In this document: one piece after another, positions 38,684 through 49,575 of the stretch | Position numbering within the stretch: position 1 is the stretch's first letter | How the letters are laid out: the number at the start of each line of letters is the position of its first letter | Source: Sphingomonas sp. | GTDB taxonomy: Bacteria > Pseudomonadota > Alphaproteobacteria > Sphingomonadales > Sphingomonadaceae | DNA length: 64,000 nt | Assembly (NCBI RefSeq): GCF_030145815.1 | Contig: NZ_JAIXHL010000011.1 | Coordinates: 62,562 to 126,561 of the forward strand | Reading direction: 5' to 3' | Notes under the pieces: generated by a model | Told to the model about the DNA's origin: nothing | The model's database searches: none | Seen by the model: the letters and a program-made list of their open reading frames with translations, nothing else | Position numbers and translations under genes: made by a program

Positions 38684-39349
38684 ATGGGCCTCAACGGCCA
38701 GATAGGGTCGCGCTTGTTCTTCATCACTTTAGCACTGGCTGCGCAGGTAACATTTGGAGGTTCGGCGACCGTCGTCGATGGCGACACGCTGCGTATCTCA
38801 GGGGAGCTCGTCCGCGTGTTCGGGGTCGATGCTCCAGAAGCATCCCAGATGTGCAATGCTGCAGTTTCTAAGGTGGCTTGCGGCCGAGAAGCGTCAGAGT
38901 GGCTAAGAGCGCATATAGCTGGTCGGACCCTGCAGTGCGTGGCCGTGGAGCGAGACCGCTACGGGCGCATTGTCGCTCGCTGCAGCGTTCAAGGCGTTGA
39001 CGTCGGGCGCTCGCTCGTGGAGGCCGGCTGGGCAACCGCTTATCGCAAATACTCGCTGCAATACGTAGATGCCGAAGCGCGCGCCAAGGCGGCGCGGCGC
39101 GGCATCTGGGCGCTCGGCTTCGAGCGTCCCGAAGCTTATCGCAGAGCCAAGACGGCCAAGGTCACTCCGGAGGCGCCGCCCAACCCGCGGTGCCTAGTGA
39201 AAGGCAATGTTGGCTCGACCGGAGCTCGCATCTACCACCTGCCCGGATCAAGGGACTACCCTAAGGTCCGCATCAATCCTCAGAAAGGCGAACGCTGGTT
39301 CTGTAGCGCCAGCGAGGCAGCGGCTGCAGGCTGGCGCCCTGTCCGCTGA
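38684..39349 (+). CDS. Thermonuclease (SNase) with C-terminal Cys/His domain (ExoI-like)
   Basis: VVDGDTL, VRVFGVDAPE, DRYGRIVARC, LVEAGWA; C-terminal CLVKGN...IYHLPG...Y....I....GERWFCS..EA..AGWR. Confidence 0.9.
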   Translation: MGLNGQIGSRLFFITLALAAQVTFGGSATVVDGDTLRISGELVRVFGVDAPEASQMCNAAVSKVACGREASEWLRAHIAGRTLQCVAVERDRYGRIVARCSVQGVDVGRSLVEAGWATAYRKYSLQYVDAEARAKAARRGIWALGFERPEAYRRAKTAKVTPEAPPNPRCLVKGNVGSTGARIYHLPGSRDYPKVRINPQKGERWFCSASEAAAAGWRPVR

Positions 39350-40666
39350 TCAACGTAACGTGCGCTCCCGGCGAACGGGCGCCTCAGCCCCGGACGTGGC
39401 CCCGCCCGGCCGCTCGACTCCAACCCGCTTCAACGGAGTCGCGCCGACTGGAAGCGAACGCTCGATCACGAGACCGCCACCTGCACTCGCCAGCGCATCC
39501 TGAAGGGTCGAGACGTCGCCGCACCATATCGTCTCGGCATCTCGATCGCGACTTGGATCGGGCCCAATCCCGCCCGCCTCGAATGCAACAGGGCGCATCT
39601 GCATGCGCTCAGCCCCTGCGACTGCGCTGACTTCGACGCCATAGTCCGGCCGCGCGGCGCTCCGAAGCACGAGGCGGCCATCTGTTGCCAAGGATGTCGA
39701 CATGCCCTCGGCAACTTCATAGCCAAGGCTGGCTAGCCCTTCGAGCACAGCCAAGCGGCGCGCAGCGGCGGCACGCTTGGCACGCAACTCCTCAATAGCA
39801 GCACGAACCGAAGCGATCTCGGCCTCAAGCGTGGCAGCGTTCAAGCCATCAACGCTGCCTTCTGAAACAATACCCCCAGCCGCTGACAGTTCAGCGCGTA
39901 GCAGCAAGAGCTCGCCACGAAGCGATGCCCGCAGACGAGCTTCAGTGAGACCGCGGCCGGTCTCTACTTCCAGGCCGTCGAGCAACAACTTCCGTCGGCT
40001 TGGAGCCGCCGAGGCTGCCTCTTCAAGACGCATTCTCGCATTCGCCGTGTCCACCTCACCGATCGTGTCGAGTTCGTCTAGCCTTGCCGCTATCTTCTCC
40101 GTTGCCGGGTCGGCGGGTCCCGCCGGCTGCGAAGCAAGCCAATCGGCAAACGTTTGCGCGGGCGAATTGTCCTTGAGACTCGCTGCGAGACCATGGGCCG
40201 CTCGCTTCTCCACCGCCACGTCCGCCAGCATGGCAAACCCGGTGGTCAGCGCCTGCGCGTCGCCCCGCTCCAACTTGGAGGTTAGCTCAGGTTCAAGCGG
40301 AATCTCAAGTTCACGCAAACGTCGAAGGAGCGAAGCTGCAGCGTCTCGGTCGCGGCGTTCCTTTGAGCGGGCTGCCGCCTGCTCAGCTACGACGGCTGCC
40401 AGCCTGCGCTGCATATCAGCGCGCAAAAACTCCTCTTCGATTGGTGCCTGCTTCTGGACATCCATGAACCGGTCCGCAGCGATCAGAGCCGCCAATGCGT
40501 CCCGCCGTCGGGTGGCTATGGCTAATGCATCCTCATCAATGCATTCGTTTCTTCGCCCGACCCTAGTCCATTCCTCCAATGCCGCGTCGACCCGCGCCAA
40601 ATGGCCCCGGCAGATTTCCAGGATTTCCTCGCGCGTTACGATCCGCACGACTTTCGGTCCGCTCAC
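39350..40666 (-). CDS. Helical hypothetical protein (438 aa), last gene of the four-gene operon
   Basis: MSGPKVVRIVTREE N-terminus; Ala/Arg/Glu-rich coiled coil; globular C-terminal ~130 aa; GTGA overlap. Confidence 0.85.
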   Translation of the reverse strand: MSGPKVVRIVTREEILEICRGHLARVDAALEEWTRVGRRNECIDEDALAIATRRRDALAALIAADRFMDVQKQAPIEEEFLRADMQRRLAAVVAEQAAARSKERRDRDAAASLLRRLRELEIPLEPELTSKLERGDAQALTTGFAMLADVAVEKRAAHGLAASLKDNSPAQTFADWLASQPAGPADPATEKIAARLDELDTIGEVDTANARMRLEEAASAAPSRRKLLLDGLEVETGRGLTEARLRASLRGELLLLRAELSAAGGIVSEGSVDGLNAATLEAEIASVRAAIEELRAKRAAAARRLAVLEGLASLGYEVAEGMSTSLATDGRLVLRSAARPDYGVEVSAVAGAERMQMRPVAFEAGGIGPDPSRDRDAETIWCGDVSTLQDALASAGGGLVIERSLPVGATPLKRVGVERPGGATSGAEAPVRRERTLR

Positions 40667-43600
40667 GCCTGCACTCCCATCGCCGCGGTGATCGCCACGC
40701 GTAGCCGCTCTATTTCCAGTTCCGGCTCATGGAACCAGCGGTGCGATGAGACACGGTGGATCCTGGGGATGGAGCGCCGCAGCACGGCCGGTCGCCACAT
40801 CTCGCGGGCGCGCGCATTTTCCAGCAACGGATGCCGCGGAGCATCGCATTCGATCCCGATGCCATAAAGGCCCGTGCGAGGATCTTCGATCGCGAAATCG
40901 AGCCCAAAGGCTCCGTCATCACCCACCGATGCCGGCTCCCAACCAAGCGAGCGGATTTGATCGGCCACTGCCGCTTCCAGCCCGTCGCCGCCCTCGTGAC
41001 GCAAGCGTTGACGACGCTGCTCAGGCGTCAACCGCATGAGCAGGGCGTCGGCTGCATCCAGGTCACCGTCAGAGAGCGCCCGGGCATATTCGAAATAGGC
41101 TTGCAGGAAGTCGCGCGGACTGGCCGCCTGCCGCCGAGTTGAAAGCATATCCGAGATAAGCGGGATCGGCATCGAAGTGACAAGGATCACCTTCTGTCGC
41201 GCGCGGGTGACGGCAACGTTTAGGCGCCGCTCGCCGCCAGTCTGCCCTAGCACGCCGAACGAACGCCTGAAGGTTCCCTGCGCGTTACGGCCAAACGTCG
41301 ACGAAAAGATGATCACATCGCGCTCATCGCCCTGCACGTTTTCGACGTTCTTGACGAACAGGCCCATGTCCTCGCCGGCCTCGACGCGCTCCCGCTCACG
41401 CGTGAGCGCCGTGCGGAAGGCAGCATCACCCTCGGCCCGCTCCTCGAGCACCTCTTCAATCAGGTCTGCCTGCTTACGGTTGAAGGTCACCACCCCGATC
41501 GTGGGCGGAGCTGTGCCCATGCCTGTGCCAGCCCAGATGTCCCGCAGGACGTCGGCAACCCGCTCGGCCTCTTCCGGGTTGGTCTGATCGACATAAGTCC
41601 CGTCGACGCGGATCATTTCGACAGGCCGCTTGCGCCGGACTTCATCCGCCGGGTGACGGGCTGGGACGCTCAGGCGATTTACATAGAATGACGCATTGGA
41701 GAACTGGATGAGTTCACGATAAGCAGACCGATAGTGGATCTGCAGCGTGGTCGACGGCAGCACGGTCTTCGCGAGCTGCAGGAGATCGGGACAGTCCTTG
41801 ATCTCGCGGCGGTTCCAAGTCTCTTCGAGCGCCTCGCGCTCCTCCTCAGGTAGGTCCTCTTCGGCCGCCTGTCCTTCGAAAACCTCCGCTTCGTCGCTCT
41901 CCACGCGGCTCGAGAAGAAGGCAGTGGGTGGCATCTGCTTCTCATCGCCGCTCACGATCATCGTGCCGCTTCGGTAAAGGGTAGGGAGCGCATATTCGAC
42001 GGGCATCTGTGAGGCCTCGTCGAAGATGACCGTGTCAAACAGCGCCTTGCGCAGCGGAAGCAGTCTGCTTGCGACATCGGGGTTGACCAGCCAAACCGGG
42101 CGTAGCTGCATCAAGCCGAGGTCGGCACCGCGCTCAACAAATTCGCGCAACCGCCGGGCCCGAACGCCGCGCAACCTCGTAATATCTTCCCACTCACGAA
42201 GCGGCCGCAGCCTGCTTGCATCTAACCCGTCGACCAACAGCCGGCGGTTGAGGCCACGCATTTCGCTGTCGGCTGTCTTCAGCGAAGCCGCCTTCGCCTC
42301 AAGCTCGTCGGCCTCCAGCATCAATGTGGGGTCGGCCGCCTCCATCCGCGACTTCCAGGCGAGCCGCGCCTCCATACCCATAATGCGCCGCACGGTCGGC
42401 TCCAACTCGGGCCGGAGGAGATCCTCAAGCCGTTCGCGTATCCTCGCGAGCTGGGCGAAGACGGCCATCGCGTCCTCGCCCAGCTGCGGCACCCTGGCAC
42501 GGAAACGCTGGTAGGCCGCGACGTGCGGCAATGCCTCTACCAGCGGCGCGGCAGCTGCAGCACCGGGACCGTTAGCCGCGATTGCGGCTTCACGGGCCTC
42601 TACCCAGTCGTCCTGCATCCATGGCTGCAATCGTGTCAGCGCAGCGCGCGACGCGGTTCGAGCTGCGTGGCGCGCCAGACCCTGGTCGATGCCTTCCATG
42701 AGGTCTTCGACCGCCCCACGGGTAGCCGCGCGCGCCATGGCCCTAGCGGTTTGCGGCTCAGGATACGCTTCGAGCCTCGCCACGAGCGACTCCGCAGCGG
42801 CAAGCTCCGACTGAAGCGTCCGGGCGTGCGACAGCAGATCCGGGACGCGCAACGGCGGCAGATGACCACCTGGCTCTCCGACCTCCACGGTCACATCGAC
42901 GAGTCTCGAGCGAAGCGGCCGCAGGTCAACCTCACGGTGCAGCGCCGCGCCGAAGGCCTGCCGGTCCGTTAGACCTTCCTGCTTCATCAAGTTCCGGCGG
43001 CGCCAAGCAGCCATCCAGCGGCTGGGGGCCAGCCTCTGGAACAGCGTCGGACGAGCCAAGAGGCGATCGGAAATCGCGAGCCAATCGTTTAGCTCGACAT
43101 CGTCCATGGCGCGCGCGACTTCGACGGCGTCCACCGGCGCATCGTCGGCCGGCAAGGCGAGCATCGCCCGCTCGAGTTCACTCAGTTCCACCTGCGTAGC
43201 TGTGGTCCCGGGCTCCCGATCAACAACACCCGCAAACCGGTCAAGCCAGCGCGCCAGACGTGCCCTCGCACTCTCGTCCAGGCCAAGCAGCGTCCTGCCA
43301 TTCGCGCCTGACCAAGCTCGATGGGGCTCGGGATCCTCGATTGCCAGTGCGTCCGGCGTTCGCTCCGTCACCTCTTCCCGAGATGTCTCTGCGCCATGGA
43401 AGGCCCGCAGGTCGTCGCTGAAGGTCTCGACGCTGCCATCGTCCGTGCCGAACGCACGCGTCTCCGCCAGAGGGCTGTCTTCATATCTCGCCGGTAGCCA
43501 GAGCCGTGCGGTTGGCGCGCACACCTCCTGGAGCACGGCGAGCCTTCCCGGATCAAGCGACGCCAACGTATGCCGGAGTGATGGAAGCGGGGGCGTTACG

Positions 43601-46600
43601 CCTTCTCGAGCCAAGCCGATCAAGTCGCCCAGCACGAGGCGATACGACAGCCCCGTTTGACCATCGACCGCGTGCAGAGCTCGATGCTGACCGTCCAGGT
43701 CGCGCTCGAGAGACTCAATGCGCGCTGCGGCTTGCTCGCGCTGCTGCCGCCAACCCGATGCGCCATGCGGCCGCTGAAAGATCTCTTCCAGCTGTTCGCG
43801 AACGGCGCGGATGACCGGCTCCCGATCTTTGTTGACATCGTTCACCATGACGACGCGATTGCCCAGCCCAGCCGCCTCAAGGCGCTTATGCACGACTTCC
43901 AGGGCAGCTTGCTTCTGACAGACCACTAACAAGCTGCGCCCGGTGCCGATCGCGTCGGCAACCATGTTGACGATTGTCTGGCTCTTGCCGGTCCCCGGCG
44001 GCCCCTCGACCAAGAGACCACGCCCTGCCCTGGCCTCGAGCACCGCAGCCTCTTGGGAAGGATCGCTATCGGCGGTGAAATAACGCTCACGTTCGGCAAC
44101 CCGCGGCACTTGCGTGCGCTCAATCTCATCGCCCACGCGGAACGCCGTTTCGAGACTGCTGCCCGCGGGCGGCATCGCCTTTAGCTGCCGCAGGTCCTCC
44201 ATGACGGCCTGACCCATGAATCCCAGGTGGAACAGCGCGGCTGAACAGAAGACCCGGTCCTCGCCCGCATTTACGCGCAGGTCCTTCGAAGGAAGCGGAA
44301 CCAGGGTTCGTCCTTGAACCTCCGCCAATTCGCCGAAGGCTTCAATCACCTCCGCGGCGGTTGCAGATGCCCTGCCCAGCACCTCGTCGGCCACCTCGCG
44401 CCAGCGCTGTGCGGCGTCGATGCCCAATAAGGTCTCGAAAGCAGGATTGAGACGAACCTCCTCGCGGTCGCGGTCGAAGGCCAGCGTCACTCGACCACGC
44501 GAGCCTGTCTCTGGATGAAGCTTTACGGGCCACAACAAGATCGGCGCGATCCGCGGTCGTGTCGAGCGGCTGGCCTCTTGCATCACAAGGAAGGGAAAGC
44601 CCAGGTAGAGCCCGTCGATGCCAGTGTCGCGGCGGTAGAGCGTCGCGTGAGAGTGCAGTGTCCGCAGCCGCCGCTCGACACGCGCATCCTCGGCGAACGC
44701 GTGTGGGTCGACGTCAATTACCTGTTCATTGCGAAGCAGCACATGGTCAAGGAGCGACCCTGCGGTCCGACGCGGACTGTCGAGCTCGGCTAGGTCGATC
44801 CGCGCAGTCGTCTTCCCAACGATGAGCCTTGTCAGAGGGCCACGCATGATCGCGCCGGTGATGCGTCGCGCATAGAAGTCGAGCAGCGTGGCGACATAGG
44901 CTTGGCGCGGCGGCTGTCGCCAAGCCTCCGGCGACACCGCCAGCAGCGCTAGCGCGCGCGCCAGCGGCAGGCGCCGTTCGAGCCGAAATTGGTCGCCCCA
45001 CTCGTCGATACGATCAATGCCACACCGAGCGAAGCCCTCAAGCCGCGCTTCGATCTCAGCATGCAGCGCGCGCCGCGGCGTCGCCGTTCGAGCCAAAGCG
45101 GCGTCTCGGTCGAACGTCTCAAGGCCAGCCCGCCTGGCGGCCTGCTCCGCCTCGTCCACAATGGCATCTGCGGCTCGGAACTGCGACGTGGCCGCGCTGA
45201 GCAGCAGGATCAGATCCTCTTCCTCAGTCACACGCCGCTCGACGATTGCTAGCAATCCGGGATGGTCGGTGTCTGGAAGTATGCGCCTACGCTCGTCCCA
45301 GACGGCTGCCAGGCGACTTTTGGAAGTCGAGAGCGCAACAACGCGCATCTGAGCCTCGTCGAGCTCGACGTCCAGCTGACGCGCGCGCTCGCGAACGCGG
45401 GCCTCGCGGCGCTTGAGGCGGGCCAACCACACCTCATCGTCATCGCGCTCCAGCCGTTCCGGAACAGGTCCAGAAATGAGCGCGTAACCCTCGTTGGGAT
45501 GTTCGAGGAGCCAGCCAGGCGTTACGATCTCGCCACGCACCACCAATGGCATCGACGGGTTAAGCGCCTTTAGTGCCAGCGCGAGGCGCAGATCGTCCGA
45601 TACGTCCTCGAGCGCAGCGATCGAACGAATGTCCGCGCGAAGTTGGGCGTGCTGCCCGGCCTCCTCAAGCCATGTGGCGACCTCGCCGCCGAGCAGCATT
45701 GAGCGCGCCTCGTCCCATGTGCCGGCATCAGCAGCAGCCAGTGCGAAACGCTCGGGGCTCGCGTGCCGCACACCGGCCAGACGGATCGACCGCTTGCTTT
45801 CGTGATCGCCGAGTTGCCGAAGGGCCGCCGGCGCATCCGGAACTTCGCCAGCAAGCCAACGCTGAACCTCAGCCCATTGCCAGCGCACGTGGCGGTCAAG
45901 CGAGAGCAGACCTCGTAACAGAGCATCTACCCGTGCGGTCAGACCTTCAGGGATGGGCGCGCCATTGGTCAACACGGTGATCAGGAACGTCTGATCGTCA
46001 GCACCAGCGAAGCATTCCCCTCGGGTGACCTGCTCGAGGATCATCATCCCCAGGCTCCACCAATCGCTGGCAGCGGCCACGCCGCCCGCGACGGCCTCTG
46101 GCGCGGTGTAGCGCGTGATCTCCAACGGCGAGACGACGTCTAAATCATACTCGGAAAGGCGAGCGGAACCGAACCCGCCAATCACGAGATCAAGTGGTTC
46201 GCGTTGGCGGACTAGTATCGCTCCTGGACGAAGGTCACGGTGACGCAGCCCGCATTCACCCAAGGCTGCAAGCGCTCCCCCGACTTCGCGCAGGATGCTC
46301 GACATTGTCGCATCATCGTCTGCCAGCAGCCCTAGATCCGCAAACGTGCCGCCGCGCACATCTTCCGCTACCTCGTAGGCACGGTCCTCCCAGCGCCCGG
46401 TCTCGTAAATCTCAGGCACATGGTCGCGGTCCAGCGCGCGAAGAGCGTCATAAACTTCAGTGTCCGGCTCGCTTCCGTTTGCGTAGAGGGTGAGCACCGC
46501 CGCGCGAGCATCACCACTGTGAATGGCTTCATAGCGCTCGCGCACATGGCTGGTGCTCGGCAGACGCCGGATCAGCCGCCAATCCGCGACAACGGTTTCG

Positions 46601-46941
46601 GAGTCGCCCTCGCTGTTCGCACCAGCTTTTTCATCAACGGCGTCAGGCTCGCCGGTCGTCCGATCTACTATCGAAGGATTAGCCGCATCGGCTTCAACAG
46701 AGATATCGCCCCCGCACTCGGCGCACATGATGTCGCCGAGATCCATTGGGTGGCCGTTTACGCAGCGGGTCGCTGGGGCCTCGACCGGATCAACTGGAGC
46801 GACCTGCTCGGGCCGCCAGCCTTCGGGCCGAAGCGGTTGCGACGATAGCGGCCAGTCGCATGGCGAACCATCAATCTCGCCCTCGCAGAAGGTCTCGCTG
46901 GGAGGCCGCTCCGACCGGCAGTTGGGGCAAAACCGAATCAA
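40663..46941 (-). CDS. 2092-aa multidomain protein: double Zn-ribbon, pseudokinase, DUF4011, SF1B (Upf1/Dna2-like) helicase, MTES_1575/Vsr-like nuclease
   Basis: CPNC/CVNGH/CAEC; HRDLRP, APE, DWWSLG; LYLGFPFL...APILLWPV...NPAF; GPPGTGKS, IFDEASQ, GDEKQMPP, HYRS, VQGDERD, RLNVAVTRAR; C-terminal LDFAI...GIECD. Confidence 0.88.
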   Translation of the reverse strand: MIRFCPNCRSERPPSETFCEGEIDGSPCDWPLSSQPLRPEGWRPEQVAPVDPVEAPATRCVNGHPMDLGDIMCAECGGDISVEADAANPSIVDRTTGEPDAVDEKAGANSEGDSETVVADWRLIRRLPSTSHVRERYEAIHSGDARAAVLTLYANGSEPDTEVYDALRALDRDHVPEIYETGRWEDRAYEVAEDVRGGTFADLGLLADDDATMSSILREVGGALAALGECGLRHRDLRPGAILVRQREPLDLVIGGFGSARLSEYDLDVVSPLEITRYTAPEAVAGGVAAASDWWSLGMMILEQVTRGECFAGADDQTFLITVLTNGAPIPEGLTARVDALLRGLLSLDRHVRWQWAEVQRWLAGEVPDAPAALRQLGDHESKRSIRLAGVRHASPERFALAAADAGTWDEARSMLLGGEVATWLEEAGQHAQLRADIRSIAALEDVSDDLRLALALKALNPSMPLVVRGEIVTPGWLLEHPNEGYALISGPVPERLERDDDEVWLARLKRREARVRERARQLDVELDEAQMRVVALSTSKSRLAAVWDERRRILPDTDHPGLLAIVERRVTEEEDLILLLSAATSQFRAADAIVDEAEQAARRAGLETFDRDAALARTATPRRALHAEIEARLEGFARCGIDRIDEWGDQFRLERRLPLARALALLAVSPEAWRQPPRQAYVATLLDFYARRITGAIMRGPLTRLIVGKTTARIDLAELDSPRRTAGSLLDHVLLRNEQVIDVDPHAFAEDARVERRLRTLHSHATLYRRDTGIDGLYLGFPFLVMQEASRSTRPRIAPILLWPVKLHPETGSRGRVTLAFDRDREEVRLNPAFETLLGIDAAQRWREVADEVLGRASATAAEVIEAFGELAEVQGRTLVPLPSKDLRVNAGEDRVFCSAALFHLGFMGQAVMEDLRQLKAMPPAGSSLETAFRVGDEIERTQVPRVAERERYFTADSDPSQEAAVLEARAGRGLLVEGPPGTGKSQTIVNMVADAIGTGRSLLVVCQKQAALEVVHKRLEAAGLGNRVVMVNDVNKDREPVIRAVREQLEEIFQRPHGASGWRQQREQAAARIESLERDLDGQHRALHAVDGQTGLSYRLVLGDLIGLAREGVTPPLPSLRHTLASLDPGRLAVLQEVCAPTARLWLPARYEDSPLAETRAFGTDDGSVETFSDDLRAFHGAETSREEVTERTPDALAIEDPEPHRAWSGANGRTLLGLDESARARLARWLDRFAGVVDREPGTTATQVELSELERAMLALPADDAPVDAVEVARAMDDVELNDWLAISDRLLARPTLFQRLAPSRWMAAWRRRNLMKQEGLTDRQAFGAALHREVDLRPLRSRLVDVTVEVGEPGGHLPPLRVPDLLSHARTLQSELAAAESLVARLEAYPEPQTARAMARAATRGAVEDLMEGIDQGLARHAARTASRAALTRLQPWMQDDWVEAREAAIAANGPGAAAAAPLVEALPHVAAYQRFRARVPQLGEDAMAVFAQLARIRERLEDLLRPELEPTVRRIMGMEARLAWKSRMEAADPTLMLEADELEAKAASLKTADSEMRGLNRRLLVDGLDASRLRPLREWEDITRLRGVRARRLREFVERGADLGLMQLRPVWLVNPDVASRLLPLRKALFDTVIFDEASQMPVEYALPTLYRSGTMIVSGDEKQMPPTAFFSSRVESDEAEVFEGQAAEEDLPEEEREALEETWNRREIKDCPDLLQLAKTVLPSTTLQIHYRSAYRELIQFSNASFYVNRLSVPARHPADEVRRKRPVEMIRVDGTYVDQTNPEEAERVADVLRDIWAGTGMGTAPPTIGVVTFNRKQADLIEEVLEERAEGDAAFRTALTRERERVEAGEDMGLFVKNVENVQGDERDVIIFSSTFGRNAQGTFRRSFGVLGQTGGERRLNVAVTRARQKVILVTSMPIPLISDMLSTRRQAASPRDFLQAYFEYARALSDGDLDAADALLMRLTPEQRRQRLRHEGGDGLEAAVADQIRSLGWEPASVGDDGAFGLDFAIEDPRTGLYGIGIECDAPRHPLLENARAREMWRPAVLRRSIPRIHRVSSHRWFHEPELEIERLRVAITAAMGVQA

Positions 46942-47582
46942 GAATTAGCTCCCACCATGTCGGACGTGACGGTCTGATGACCGGCGGCCGCGAGGACTCG
47001 CCTCAGCCTGGCCAATTCACCGCGCGCGGGTATGCCGGCCAACCAAGCATGACCTTGCTCGTCGAATGTGACATCGAGCCGGCGGTCCGCAGCTGTGGCC
47101 GGACGATCATAGGACAGCATTTCAGCACCCGCGGCGGTCAGCGCATGAATGCGCTGATTGTCGCTCCCCCGCAAAGCGAGCGTCTGCGGAAGCTCCGAAC
47201 GGAAGCGGCCGGTAATTACCGCATCGATCAGATCAGGATGATCGGAGAGCCAACTTTCCACCTCGCTAAGCTCCCGACCAGTGAAGACGAGCGTGGTCGT
47301 GCCGGCGATGGCGCGCCAATGCGCAAGAATAACGGCCAGAGCATCTGGCTGGTCGAACGGTTCACCGCCGGACACTGTTAGGCCATCAGCCTCGTGGGCC
47401 ATCGCGCTCAGCTGACCCAGGATCTCTTCCATGAGGGCGGCACCGAGGCCCGGCTTCCATGTGTCCATTGAGATGCAACCAGGGCACCCTATGGAGCATC
47501 CCTGGAACCACAAGCCGACCCGTTGGCCTGGCCCAAGCGCACTCACCGGATAGTGCAGCCTTGAGATAAACGCGTGCGTCAC
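46938..47582 (-). CDS. Small radical SAM protein, NrdG/PflA activase-like (4Fe-4S single cluster)
   Basis: GPGQRVGLWFQGCSIGCPGC (CxxxCxxC), GLTVSGGEPFDQ, LRGSDNQRI; 4-bp overlaps on both sides. Confidence 0.9.
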   Translation of the reverse strand: MTHAFISRLHYPVSALGPGQRVGLWFQGCSIGCPGCISMDTWKPGLGAALMEEILGQLSAMAHEADGLTVSGGEPFDQPDALAVILAHWRAIAGTTTLVFTGRELSEVESWLSDHPDLIDAVITGRFRSELPQTLALRGSDNQRIHALTAAGAEMLSYDRPATAADRRLDVTFDEQGHAWLAGIPARGELARLRRVLAAAGHQTVTSDMVGANS

Positions 47583-49405
47583 GCGTCCTCCAAGATGAGG
47601 GTTGTGACCGTGCCAGCCTCAACTCGCTGCACTTTGACGGGCGCGTCGCTTTCACGATCGAAAAGCGCGCGAGCGAGCGGATTTATCAGGTGAGCCTCAA
47701 TCTGATTACGGATGCCGCGACCGCCGTTCGAGAGGTCCGCGGTGCACAGATGCCGAAGCGCGTCCCACGCTTCGGACGACAGCGTCACGCGGTGGCCCGA
47801 TGACTCAGCGTCTGCCAGCACCGAGCGCACCATCGATGCGAAAATCTCCTCGGCCACCGCCGGGCGGATGAAATCGAAGACGATTACGTTCTCGCCGAAC
47901 CGGTTGAGGATCTCGGGGCGGTTGAGAACCAGCTTGAAGTGATTGCCGATCTCAGCGCGCACGCGTGAACGGACCTCCTCGAAGGGTTGGTCCGGCGTGA
48001 CATTCGCTTTCCTACTGCCATCCGGCGCAGTCGAGTAGATGCCAAGGTTCGACGTGAAGATGATCAGGGCCTCGGAAAAATAGACCCGGTCACCACGGCC
48101 CGAGGTCAGCACCCCGTCGTCCAGGATCTGTAAAAACTTGTCGAGAATGCGCGGATGAGCTTTTTCGATCTCGTCGAAGAGCACGACGGCGAAAGGGCGC
48201 TCGCGCACGGCGTTCGTAAGCTCACCACCTGCGTCATAACCGACATAGCCCGGCGGCGCGCCGATGAGCCGCTGGTCAGCGTGCTCGGCGCTGAACTCGG
48301 ACATGTCGAAGCGGATGTATGCGCTCTCGTCCCCGAAAAGCAGCTCAGTTACGGTCTTGGCGAGTTCGGTCTTACCCACGCCGGTAGGTCCGGCAAGAAA
48401 CGCGATACCACGTGGCCGGCCGCCGCGTCGGCCGCCGCCTATCCCCGTAGCCGCTCGCTTGACGATATCCAGCATGTGAACAACGGCATGATCCTGCCCG
48501 ACGACGCGGCGCCTTATTGCTTCAGCCCCACCGCGGATCCTTTCACGCTCAATCTTGCGCCAGGCGTCCTCAGTGACGCCCACCTTGTAGCGCCTGACAG
48601 CCTCCCCAACATCCTGCACCTGGACGCCTTCTGTTCGGGCGAGTTGGGCGACAGCACTTAAATCAACCAGCAACATGCCCTCGGTGGCATCGACCAAGTC
48701 TGCCACGGCGGCATCGACCACCGCCTTTTCGGCTTCGCGCGCACCCGGCATGCCGCGCACGAGCGATGGCGCGACGGCGCCGCGGGCCGCTCGATCAGGC
48801 GGCGCAATCGGGATGTGACGGAGCCGCGGATTCTCAATCGTGAGCCAATCGGGAAGGTCCCCCTCCCTTTCAGCGACCCAGACAATGCAATTGTAGCGAG
48901 GCGCGCGGTCGGGCCCCACGGGCTGGGCCTGGGCCGATTGGCTCAGCACGAGCGCGCGGGTGAACAGCGCTTGCTCTTGCGGCGATAGCGCATCGTTTCG
49001 AACCACGAGACGCGAAGCGAAGTCAGCAACTAAGGCGATCGGCGCTCCGTCGAGCGCGACGAGTCGCTCGAGCGTGACCCCGAAGAGATCGGTGCCGGCT
49101 AGAGCTCGGCCATTGGCTGGGGTCAGGCCGAGCCTGGCGAGAATGCCATCGGCATCCGCAGGCGATCCATCTGGACGCGGCAGCACCGTGCAGCCCCCGA
49201 CAGGGTCGTAGCGAACGACGCCTGCGTATCCTGCATCGTAAAGCGTGGCCGCTAGAACGTCAGAGAGCGGTGCGGCAACGGCCACGCCGCCTATATCGCG
49301 AATCTGCAGGTCTCTGATGTTGCCGGTGAGCAAAAACTGGCTCTTGAGCGGAAGGAACCGGGTCAGGTCGCGAACCCAACGCGGCCGCACGTCTTTTTCC
49401 CCCAC
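47579..49405 (-). CDS. Clp/Hsp100-type AAA+ ATPase with one intact NBD2 and a degenerate N-terminal module
   Basis: VVGQDHA, FLAGPTGVGKTELAK, RFDMSEF, LIGAPPGYVGY, VLFDEIEKAHP, LQILDDG.LT, IFTSN, RPEILNR. GTG 49405 has a GGGGGA RBS (ORF opens at 49435). Confidence 0.9.
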   Translation of the reverse strand: MGEKDVRPRWVRDLTRFLPLKSQFLLTGNIRDLQIRDIGGVAVAAPLSDVLAATLYDAGYAGVVRYDPVGGCTVLPRPDGSPADADGILARLGLTPANGRALAGTDLFGVTLERLVALDGAPIALVADFASRLVVRNDALSPQEQALFTRALVLSQSAQAQPVGPDRAPRYNCIVWVAEREGDLPDWLTIENPRLRHIPIAPPDRAARGAVAPSLVRGMPGAREAEKAVVDAAVADLVDATEGMLLVDLSAVAQLARTEGVQVQDVGEAVRRYKVGVTEDAWRKIERERIRGGAEAIRRRVVGQDHAVVHMLDIVKRAATGIGGGRRGGRPRGIAFLAGPTGVGKTELAKTVTELLFGDESAYIRFDMSEFSAEHADQRLIGAPPGYVGYDAGGELTNAVRERPFAVVLFDEIEKAHPRILDKFLQILDDGVLTSGRGDRVYFSEALIIFTSNLGIYSTAPDGSRKANVTPDQPFEEVRSRVRAEIGNHFKLVLNRPEILNRFGENVIVFDFIRPAVAEEIFASMVRSVLADAESSGHRVTLSSEAWDALRHLCTADLSNGGRGIRNQIEAHLINPLARALFDRESDAPVKVQRVEAGTVTTLILEDA

Positions 49406-49575
49406 CGCTGCAATCCCCCGTTCCGGATGACGCACCTTCCCAACGGTGCGCCGCAGCCCAGACTATCGGGTCGGCGGCTTAACACAATGCTGCCACCCGC
49501 CTGTTGCCCATAATGGTCCAGTTCGGCACTTTGCAAACTAGGCCGTTCGGGTATCGCGGCTGGGGGGAGAGCGCA

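Follow-up and report, generated by a model that had tools for sequence, protein, structure and literature searches.

A predicted pseudokinase with an unusually clear evolutionary history on an Hhe-like helicase-nuclease of Sphingomonas sp.

Introduction

In RNase L, a dead kinase-fold domain upstream of a nuclease serves the nucleotide-assisted dimerisation by which that nuclease is activated, and Ire1 is a kinase-nuclease. Eukaryotic pseudokinases have been studied in depth, whereas few from bacteria can be traced clearly through evolution or placed in a functional context. Here we analysed the kinase-like domain of an intact giant open reading frame (ORF) of 2092 amino acids (aa), found by ORF list and translation at 40663..46941 in a 64,000-nucleotide stretch of DNA from Sphingomonas sp. 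(assembly GCF_030145815.1, contig NZ_JAIXHL010000011.1, positions 62,562 to 126,561 of the forward strand; hereafter the window). Window features lie on the minus strand unless stated otherwise. We consider it quite probable that aa 120-365 of this protein form an evolutionarily fixed pseudokinase, which has lost phosphotransfer and is kept for a non-catalytic role.

Bacterial defence systems offer partial counterparts. Prometheus ProA is a single-gene anti-phage protein made of DUF4011, a superfamily 1 (SF1) helicase and a nuclease (van den Berg et al. 2024, cited in PMC13700489). In Mokosh type I, the anti-phage protein MkoA carries a Ser/Thr kinase fused N-terminally to an Upf1-like SF1 helicase (Millman et al. 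2022, bioRxiv 10.1101/2022.05.11.491447). When the giant protein was compared with the PADLOC models, it matched PDC-S37 (3e-148) and Hhe (2e-67), and the NCBIfam matches to ProA and Hhe were both below their cut-offs. In the literature searched we found no description of the four-gene operon to which the giant gene belongs, of a kinase-fused Hhe or of the dead-kinase state.

Results

The domain has a complete kinase fold and lacks three catalytic residues

The original prediction held that aa 120-365 (45847..46584) are a catalytically dead kinase domain with an intact scaffold. Each motif that it quoted (AVLTLY, HRDLRPGA, GFG, APE and DWWSLG) lies where it had been placed, and Pfam, AlphaFold2 and Foldseek all recovered the scaffold as a complete Hanks-type kinase fold. 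The Pfam family Pkinase (PF00069) matched aa 166-359 above its cut-off (E 2.1e-15, 57.3 bits against 31.7); the match covers profile positions 51-257 only and leaves the Gly-loop/VAIK part of the profile unmatched. AlphaFold2 modelling of aa 1-438, with 26 sequences from the retrieved loci as input, gave a mean predicted local distance difference test (pLDDT) score of 81.9, with about 90 in the kinase part. The predicted two-lobed fold is complete in this model, with beta1 at 121-127, beta2 at 134-141, beta3 at 147-153 and alphaC at 161-169. The top 50 Foldseek matches listed against the PDB were all protein kinases, the best of them with template modelling (TM) scores of 0.77-0.78, and included ULK1 (8p5g, TM 0.77, root-mean-square deviation 2.9 A) and PknA/B of M. 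tuberculosis (6b2q, 25% identity).

The beta3 (VAIK) Lys is replaced by T151 (46489..46491) within AVLTLY (aa 148-153, 46483-46500), as had been claimed. Close paralogs read xVLKLY opposite AVLTLY in a gap-free alignment, so the position can be assigned without a remote alignment, and T151 stands against K in 34/34 intact paralogs. A misaligned beta3 was considered and rejected on the strength of this gap-free alignment and of the strand boundaries of the model. The catalytic loop reads HRDLRPGA (aa 234-241, 46219..46242), in which D236 is kept, K238 is changed to R and N241 to A, and GFG stands in place of DFG (aa 256-258, 46168..46176, with G256 as the changed residue). A241 and G256 align to the N of HRDLKPxN and to the D of DFG in the paralogs. 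N241A and D256G together remove both Mg ligands; the K-to-R change in HRDLRP is conservative and alone would not inactivate a kinase. The retained scaffold spans aa 280-298 (46048..46104) with APE at aa 280-282 (46096-46104), the alphaF Asp and DWWSLG at aa 293-298 (46048-46065), and is invariant in both the giant and the intact-kinase clades.

The original prediction had further counted the missing Gly-rich loop as a sign of inactivity. The loop is indeed absent, since the beta1-beta2 turn reads LPSTSHV, with no glycine and no GxGxxG. As a diagnostic, however, this observation did not hold up: the intact sister clade has no GxGxxG either and carries an invariant SGEAD instead, which makes the missing loop a weak criterion when taken alone.

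By the usual operational definition, a pseudokinase has a kinase fold and is without at least one of the beta3 Lys, the HRD Asp and the DFG Asp. Compared with a competent kinase, the window domain has lost the beta3 Lys, the Mg-binding Asn and the DFG Asp and has kept the HRD Asp (D236). Two of the three defining residues are thus gone, and they are gone family-wide in a fold that is under selection.

The catalytic losses are shared by the whole giant clade

A search with residues 1-420 gave 740 full-length relatives, and the best 120 of these (at least 54% identity; from Sphingomonas, Caulobacter, Bosea, Methylobacterium, Mesorhizobium, Pseudorhodoferax and other genera) were tabulated. When the orthologs were aligned over VAIK, HRDLKPxN and DFG, the motifs proved not to be kept and the substitutions to be family-wide. 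The beta3 position is T in 108/121 sequences and the Asn position A in 114/121, while the DFG Asp position holds G in 82, S in 26 (G or S in 108/121), D in 8, A in 4 and N in 1; the HRD Asp is D in 120/121. To reach more distant relatives, an exhaustive profile-free search with the domain alone was run over 1.8 billion representatives; it found 222 proteins below 1e-30, the top 150 of which were analysed. Among these, 63 proteins of at least 1800 aa, clustered at 50% identity, served as giant representatives. At least one of the Lys, Asn and DFG Asp is missing in 62 of the 63, at least two in 60 and all three in 36. T occupies the beta3 position in 44/63, the DFG Asp position is mostly G (41, against 12 with D and 5 with E), and the HRD Asp is kept in 31/63. 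Strain-specific decay was therefore rejected, as the substitutions are common to more than 100 orthologs and to nearly all giant representatives.

The proteins of about 700-1550 aa gave a different picture, with 34/48 keeping K, D, K, N and D at the five catalytic positions. The other 14 are degenerate, nested inside the giant clade and probably fragments of giants. In a separate case from Rhodoplanes serenus (L015), the kinase-region match lies in a 465-aa stop-to-stop frame whose upstream part is unaligned, and this copy is possibly frameshifted or truncated.

Comparison of the two clades column by column separated catalysis from fold. The catalytic columns, conserved in at least 33/34 intact paralogs, are E133/A134 in the P-loop, K151, D236, K238, N241, D256, G258, S261 in the activation loop and T275 in the P+1 loop; the same columns have an entropy of 1.5-3.7 bits in the giants. 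The alphaC Glu follows this pattern, being present in 28/34 intact paralogs versus 7/64 giants. By contrast, about 20 fold-core columns are invariant across the clades, which share less than 40% identity: G182, the HRD His, P239, the DFG Phe, Y278, APE, G286, S292, the alphaF Asp 293, W294, W295, G298, R353 and W362 are among the fold columns invariant in both. Four positions, W121, G231, R233 and G308, are newly conserved in the giants. A Lys relocated as in WNK was also considered and rejected, because a scan for K and R found no basic residue conserved at 70% or more in any N-lobe column of the 64 giants.

The domain is under purifying selection

Identity across 119 orthologs was 0.79 in the kinase C-lobe, against 0.81-0.85 in the helicase domains and 0.14 in the linker that precedes the kinase, and conservation within aa 120-365 ranged from 0.67 to 0.79, with the C-lobe core and the activation segment as the best-conserved parts. 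The ratio of nonsynonymous to synonymous substitution rates (dN/dS) was interpreted, with caution, for the three closest loci only, as dS was saturated in the distant loci L001, L003, L007 and L008 and these could not be used; it amounted to 0.04-0.06 in the kinase, 0.03-0.045 in the DUF4011/helicase-1A region and 0.3-0.5 in the linker. These values strongly indicate that the structural core (the HRD His, the APE Glu paired with R353, the alphaF Asp and DWWSLG) and the domain as a whole are under purifying selection about as strong as that on the helicase motor.

This level of constraint speaks directly against the notion that the domain is a functionless relic of the fusion partner kept as a spacer only: drifting catalytic residues would suit such a relic, but the adjoining true spacer has the far higher dN/dS, the fold core does not vary and the domain is present in every giant representative, so that we regard this explanation as effectively excluded. 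The claim of a catalytically dead pseudokinase thus stands as a prediction, strongly supported by family-wide substitutions, drifting catalytic columns, invariant fold columns, the lack of a compensating N-lobe basic residue and purifying selection.

Intact sister kinases occur as standalone proteins, often beside an FHA reader

The standalone intact sister proteins are about 800-1400 aa long and share the DWWSLG signature, and all 34 of them keep K, D, K, N and D. They have the zinc ribbon, the kinase and the post-kinase extension in common with the giant, and their C-termini vary, consisting of transmembrane helices, Sel1, RCC1, WD40 or YARHG. Homologs of the AAA+ ATPase and of the radical S-adenosylmethionine (radical-SAM) protein that are encoded next to the giant gene adjoin the intact kinases in L020, L023, L026, L027 and L028, and a different gene order was seen in L018, L021 and L025. 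In 5/8 such loci (L028, L027, L019, L018/L033 and L021/L032) there is also an FHA phospho-threonine reader; in 4/5 of the FHA loci a double zinc ribbon is joined to the reader or comes before it. FHA partners were seen only with catalytically intact kinases; no FHA was found in the giant operons, nor in the genome of the window or three other giant-bearing genomes, all of which were searched. The kinase, FHA, AAA+ and radical-SAM genes look like a modular and apparently undescribed family of systems.

The genome of the window also encodes three canonical Hanks kinases of 538, 811 and 824 aa (G000:C11:51471-52166, C18:83223-83816 and C47:10343-10942), whose Pkinase scores of 110-126 bits exceed the 62 bits of the window domain.

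Fusion appears to have preceded inactivation

In a maximum-likelihood tree of 110 kinase domains, obtained by a quick search with a midpoint root, the intact standalone proteins and the giant clade fell on either side of a branch with 100% support in the Shimodaira-Hasegawa-like approximate likelihood ratio test (SH-aLRT). Because the standalone sister clade keeps every catalytic residue, the ancestor is, judged by its sequence relatives, an active kinase. The earliest-branching giants are P0207 (KDKND) and P0201 (KNKTD); the beta3 Lys and the DFG Asp are kept in both, and all five residues in P0207. The latter protein, from a 20-kb contig of JGI metagenome 3300072015, can be aligned with the window protein over the entire length (33% identity), and its locus has the order AAA_2 (617 aa), Fer4_12 (216 aa), giant and a 465-aa gene. 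Since the earliest-branching giants keep catalytic residues in the same operon setting, the fusion would have come first and the inactivation later. On the tree, the beta3 Lys requires at least 2 changes, the DFG Asp 6, the Asn 11 and the HRD Asp 19.

We propose that the kinase module became fused to a Hhe/Prometheus-like body of DUF4011, SF1 helicase and restriction endonuclease while its catalytic residues were still present, that the beta3 Lys may have been lost early after the fusion and not regained on the tree, and that the remaining catalytic residues would then have drifted many times independently. In this way a phospho-signalling module of kinase and FHA protein, having acquired a helicase-nuclease effector, would have shed its reader and, after that, its chemistry. 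On the sequence data, this order of fusion, Lys loss and drift is well supported, though not proven.

Domain layout of the giant protein

From the N- to the C-terminus the giant ORF encodes zinc ribbons, the pseudokinase, a helical domain, DUF4011, an SF1 helicase and a Vsr-like restriction endonuclease. The original prediction had placed a double zinc ribbon ahead of the kinase, and two conserved sites were indeed found there. Ribbon 1 (46858..46929; pLDDT about 90) has the ligands C5, C8, C19 and C28, and 4/4 Cys are present in all orthologs that cover the N-terminus. Ribbon or knuckle 2 (46714..46764) is a C-H-C-C site formed by C60, H64, C73 and C76, conserved in 118/121 (C60), 120/121 (H64) and 121/121 (both C73 and C76) sequences. 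The whole zinc-ribbon region was modelled with a pLDDT of 85-92. The deposited version of the window protein (P0002, 2027 aa) begins 65 residues after the TTG at 46941, leaving out 46747-46941. The TTG overlaps the stop codon of the radical-SAM gene as TTGA and orthologs start with MIRFCPNC at the TTG position, and for these two reasons the deposited start probably drops ribbon 1 together with C60 and H64 of ribbon 2.

Between the ribbons and the kinase lies the variable, disordered linker of aa 81-119 (46585..46701; pLDDT below 50). The kinase is followed by a post-kinase extension of about 110 aa (aa 366-474, 45520..45846), delimited by a BLASTP alignment with the L026 kinase protein that reaches aa 474; it is common to the giant and the standalone intact kinases, with W409 invariant and W424 nearly so. 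Folding of aa 366-960 revealed a large all-helical domain of about 320 aa (about aa 385-700, 44842..45789; AlphaFold2 pLDDT about 90), for which Foldseek against the PDB gave no match with E below 1 and Pfam no family. DUF4011 occupies aa 749-839 (44425..44697; Pfam E 9.7e-13). The SF1 helicase core (41173..44064), recognised by Pfam AAA_11 and AAA_12 and by its motifs, contains a 560-aa insert; AAA_11 lies at aa 960-1069 with GPPGTGKS, DEASQ at aa 1641-1645 and AAA_12 at aa 1728-1923. The protein ends in an MTES_1575/Vsr-like restriction endonuclease fold (aa 1989-2084, 40690..40977; Pfam E 6.8e-17). Some members of the giant clade (P0129, P0131, P0140, P0155, P0171, P0182 and others) are 2400-3420 aa long and therefore carry extra domains.

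The giant gene belongs to a mobile four-gene operon

Four translationally coupled genes make up the operon, and the giant gene is the third of them. The first encodes a 618-aa AAA+ ATPase resembling nucleotide-binding domain 2 (NBD2) of ClpB (47579..49435; Walker A GPTGVGKT, Walker B VVLFDE), and the second a 214-aa NrdG/PflA-like radical-SAM protein (46938..47582; CSIGCPGC and GGEP), all of whose scores were below the curated cut-offs. Both partners keep their own catalytic motifs. In all giant loci with upstream sequence (16/16), the giant gene is immediately preceded by the AAA+ gene followed by the radical-SAM gene. The fourth gene (39350..40666) encodes a 438-aa protein without a family match; homologs follow the giant gene in L001-L003, a further one occurs at a single standalone-kinase locus (L018), and in the P0207 locus the 465-aa gene takes its place by position alone. 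Directly past the operon, in convergent orientation (38684-39349, plus strand), lies the gene for a protein that has a staphylococcal-nuclease fold and a C-terminal 'sunset' domain.

The operon was found in Alpha-, Beta- and Gammaproteobacteria and in Acidobacteriota, and also on megaplasmids of Rhizobium leguminosarum and Caballeronia (plasmid matches H1-H8). In L001/L002, contigs that encode the Caulobacter-type ortholog P0099, it lies between a TraG/TrwB-type coupling-protein gene and VirB/Trb type IV secretion genes, and because it is flanked by such genes it is probably carried there by a conjugative element. Its presence on megaplasmids and beside conjugative genes indicates that the operon moves horizontally. 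The surroundings in the window resemble a defence island, with PDC-S06, an SbcCD-like pair and others. This widespread operon of AAA+, radical-SAM and helicase-nuclease genes is apparently undescribed.

Discussion

A proposed non-catalytic module within the operon

The best reading of these data is that the dead kinase was retained as a regulatory or scaffold module with a putative binding partner. The effector function would now reside in the helicase-nuclease, and the kinase fold may keep the protein-protein role of the original kinase module. A receiver or scaffold role is favoured because the AAA+ and radical-SAM proteins are constant partners and because the C-lobe core and the activation segment are the best-conserved parts of the domain. 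Two forms of this role can be envisaged. The domain could act as a receiver or docking module for the AAA+ unfoldase, the radical-SAM enzyme or the 438-aa protein; or it could control the nuclease through self-association, much as dimerisation through the RNase L pseudokinase and the Ire1 kinase controls the nucleases fused to them. A bolder version, which we think quite unlikely, is that a radical-SAM/unfoldase pathway ends at the dead kinase, the NrdG-like activase and the ClpB-like AAA+ protein modifying or remodelling its near-invariant activation segment or C-lobe (or the 438-aa partner) and so licensing the helicase-nuclease. If this were true, a kinase fold would have been repurposed in immunity from phospho-signalling to radical- or unfolding-based signalling.

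Several considerations weigh against the interpretation of a dead, non-catalytic module or against parts of it. Kinases once called dead have been found to be active: CASK works although it lacks this Asn and the DFG Asp, and in WNK the Lys has moved to another position. The subclade of the window protein keeps the HRD Asp (120/121) and the alphaC residue E162, and for this reason a residual function of the pocket, for example nucleotide or ligand binding, is possible. The dN/dS values are rough, as dS is saturated (above 1). The tree comes from a quick search with a midpoint root, which leaves the order of events well supported and short of proven. The role as a receiver or dimerisation switch would, for its part, rest on analogy and gene linkage.

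Alternative explanations

Sensing of a ligand or nucleotide, binding of a phage protein and residual kinase activity each have less support than the receiver or scaffold role. The first of them, in which the degenerate pocket would still take up a nucleotide, or else a small-molecule product of the radical-SAM enzyme, and the helicase-nuclease would thereby be switched on allosterically, is conceivable but unlikely. Binding of nucleotides without catalysis is known from many pseudokinases, the radical-SAM gene is a neighbour in every case, and the pocket-lining D236, E158-P159-D160 and GFGSARLS segment are highly conserved in the subclade of the window protein; the same residues, however, vary widely across the giant clade, which argues against one conserved ligand, and the radical-SAM protein is closer to protein-directed glycyl-radical activases (NrdG/PflA) than to small-molecule synthases, although its scores are below the cut-offs.

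The suggestion, made in the original prediction, that the domain binds a phage protein directly also appears unlikely, and more so than ligand sensing. In this scheme a decoy or sensor would recognise a phage-encoded inhibitor of kinases, say, or a protein that had once been a kinase substrate, and would trigger the nuclease, which would accord with the location of the gene in a defence island near PDC-S06 and the SbcCD-like pair and with the strong conservation of the substrate-binding C-lobe (P+1 loop/APE, alphaF-alphaG). An arms race with phage proteins, however, should drive the surface it acts on to diversify, whereas this domain ranks with the best-conserved parts of the protein; the partners that always accompany the module, the AAA+ and radical-SAM proteins, are encoded by the host. 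As the comparative data point to a kinase/FHA module that works with AAA+ and radical-SAM proteins, a receiver or scaffold role within the operon is no less likely than a direct contact with a phage protein.

That the domain is an atypical active kinase, whether Mg-independent as CASK, equipped with a relocated Lys or Arg as WNK, or using R136, R146 or R238 as lysine stand-ins, we consider very unlikely. The near-complete retention of D236 in the close orthologs, the presence of R136 in 108/121 of them and the tolerance of CASK for the same losses of Asn and DFG Asp could be cited in its favour, but CASK keeps the beta3 Lys, which the window protein does not. Moreover, no N-lobe basic residue reaches 70% in the giants (R136 is found in 34-35 of 63-64), the HRD Asp changed at least 19 times on the tree, the entropy of the catalytic columns (1.5-2.9 bits) does not fit a conserved alternative site, and the FHA reader of phosphorylation is absent from the operon.

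We therefore return to the receiver or scaffold module as the preferred account of the domain. It would make the N-terminal third of the largest protein of the operon a remnant of signalling rather than an enzyme. The neighbourhood offers a natural series, from an active kinase with its FHA reader through an active kinase fused to a helicase-nuclease to a dead kinase on the same body, which shows the step that made catalysis dispensable and in which the intact orthologs P0207 and P0201 are natural controls.

Comparison with known systems

Among kinase models, MAD6 of MADS (2.9e-22) and PD-T4-6 (1.9e-17) were the nearest in PADLOC and NCBIfam. Their matches are partial and sub-threshold (56.9 bits for MAD6 against a cut-off of 460), and the two proteins are treated as active kinases, whereas the window protein is without the Lys, Asn and DFG Asp. 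Mokosh type I differs from the locus in several ways. It has a separate phospholipase D (PLD) nuclease, MkoB, while there is no PLD protein in the window operon; the kinase here is degenerate, and its operon partners are an AAA+ and a radical-SAM protein. The strongest stretch of the PADLOC MkoA model on the window protein was the helicase region, and in the sister clade the model matches the kinase.

The resemblance to RNase L and Ire1, namely a kinase fold fused upstream of a nuclease, serves as a working analogy for the mechanism. There is no sequence relation beyond the kinase fold, the nuclease is a Vsr-like DNase and not a KEN RNase, and the window protein has a helicase between the two domains and no ankyrin/2',5'-oligoadenylate (2-5A) sensor.

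The body of the protein is closest to Prometheus and Hhe. ProA (NF058533) was the best NCBIfam match (3.6e-152), with 508.8 bits against a cut-off of 1500. As described, ProA has DUF3320 and a DNA2-like nuclease and acts alone, without a kinase module, whereas the window protein gave no match to DUF3320 and has a Vsr-like MTES_1575 nuclease. Hhe (Gao et al. 2020; NF042953) and PDC-S37 share with it DUF4011, the SF1 AAA_11/AAA_12 helicase and the C-terminal Vsr/MTES_1575 nuclease (2e-67 and 6.6e-101 for Hhe). The NF042953 score nevertheless reached only 338.7 bits against a cut-off of 2000, with aa 1396-2079 as the best stretch, and Hhe is described as a single-gene system, while the body found here is joined to an N-terminal module of about 750 aa, made of zinc ribbons, pseudokinase and helical domain, and is encoded in a fixed four-gene operon. 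The window protein is thus a pseudokinase on an Hhe-like helicase-nuclease, and one with an unusually clear evolutionary history.

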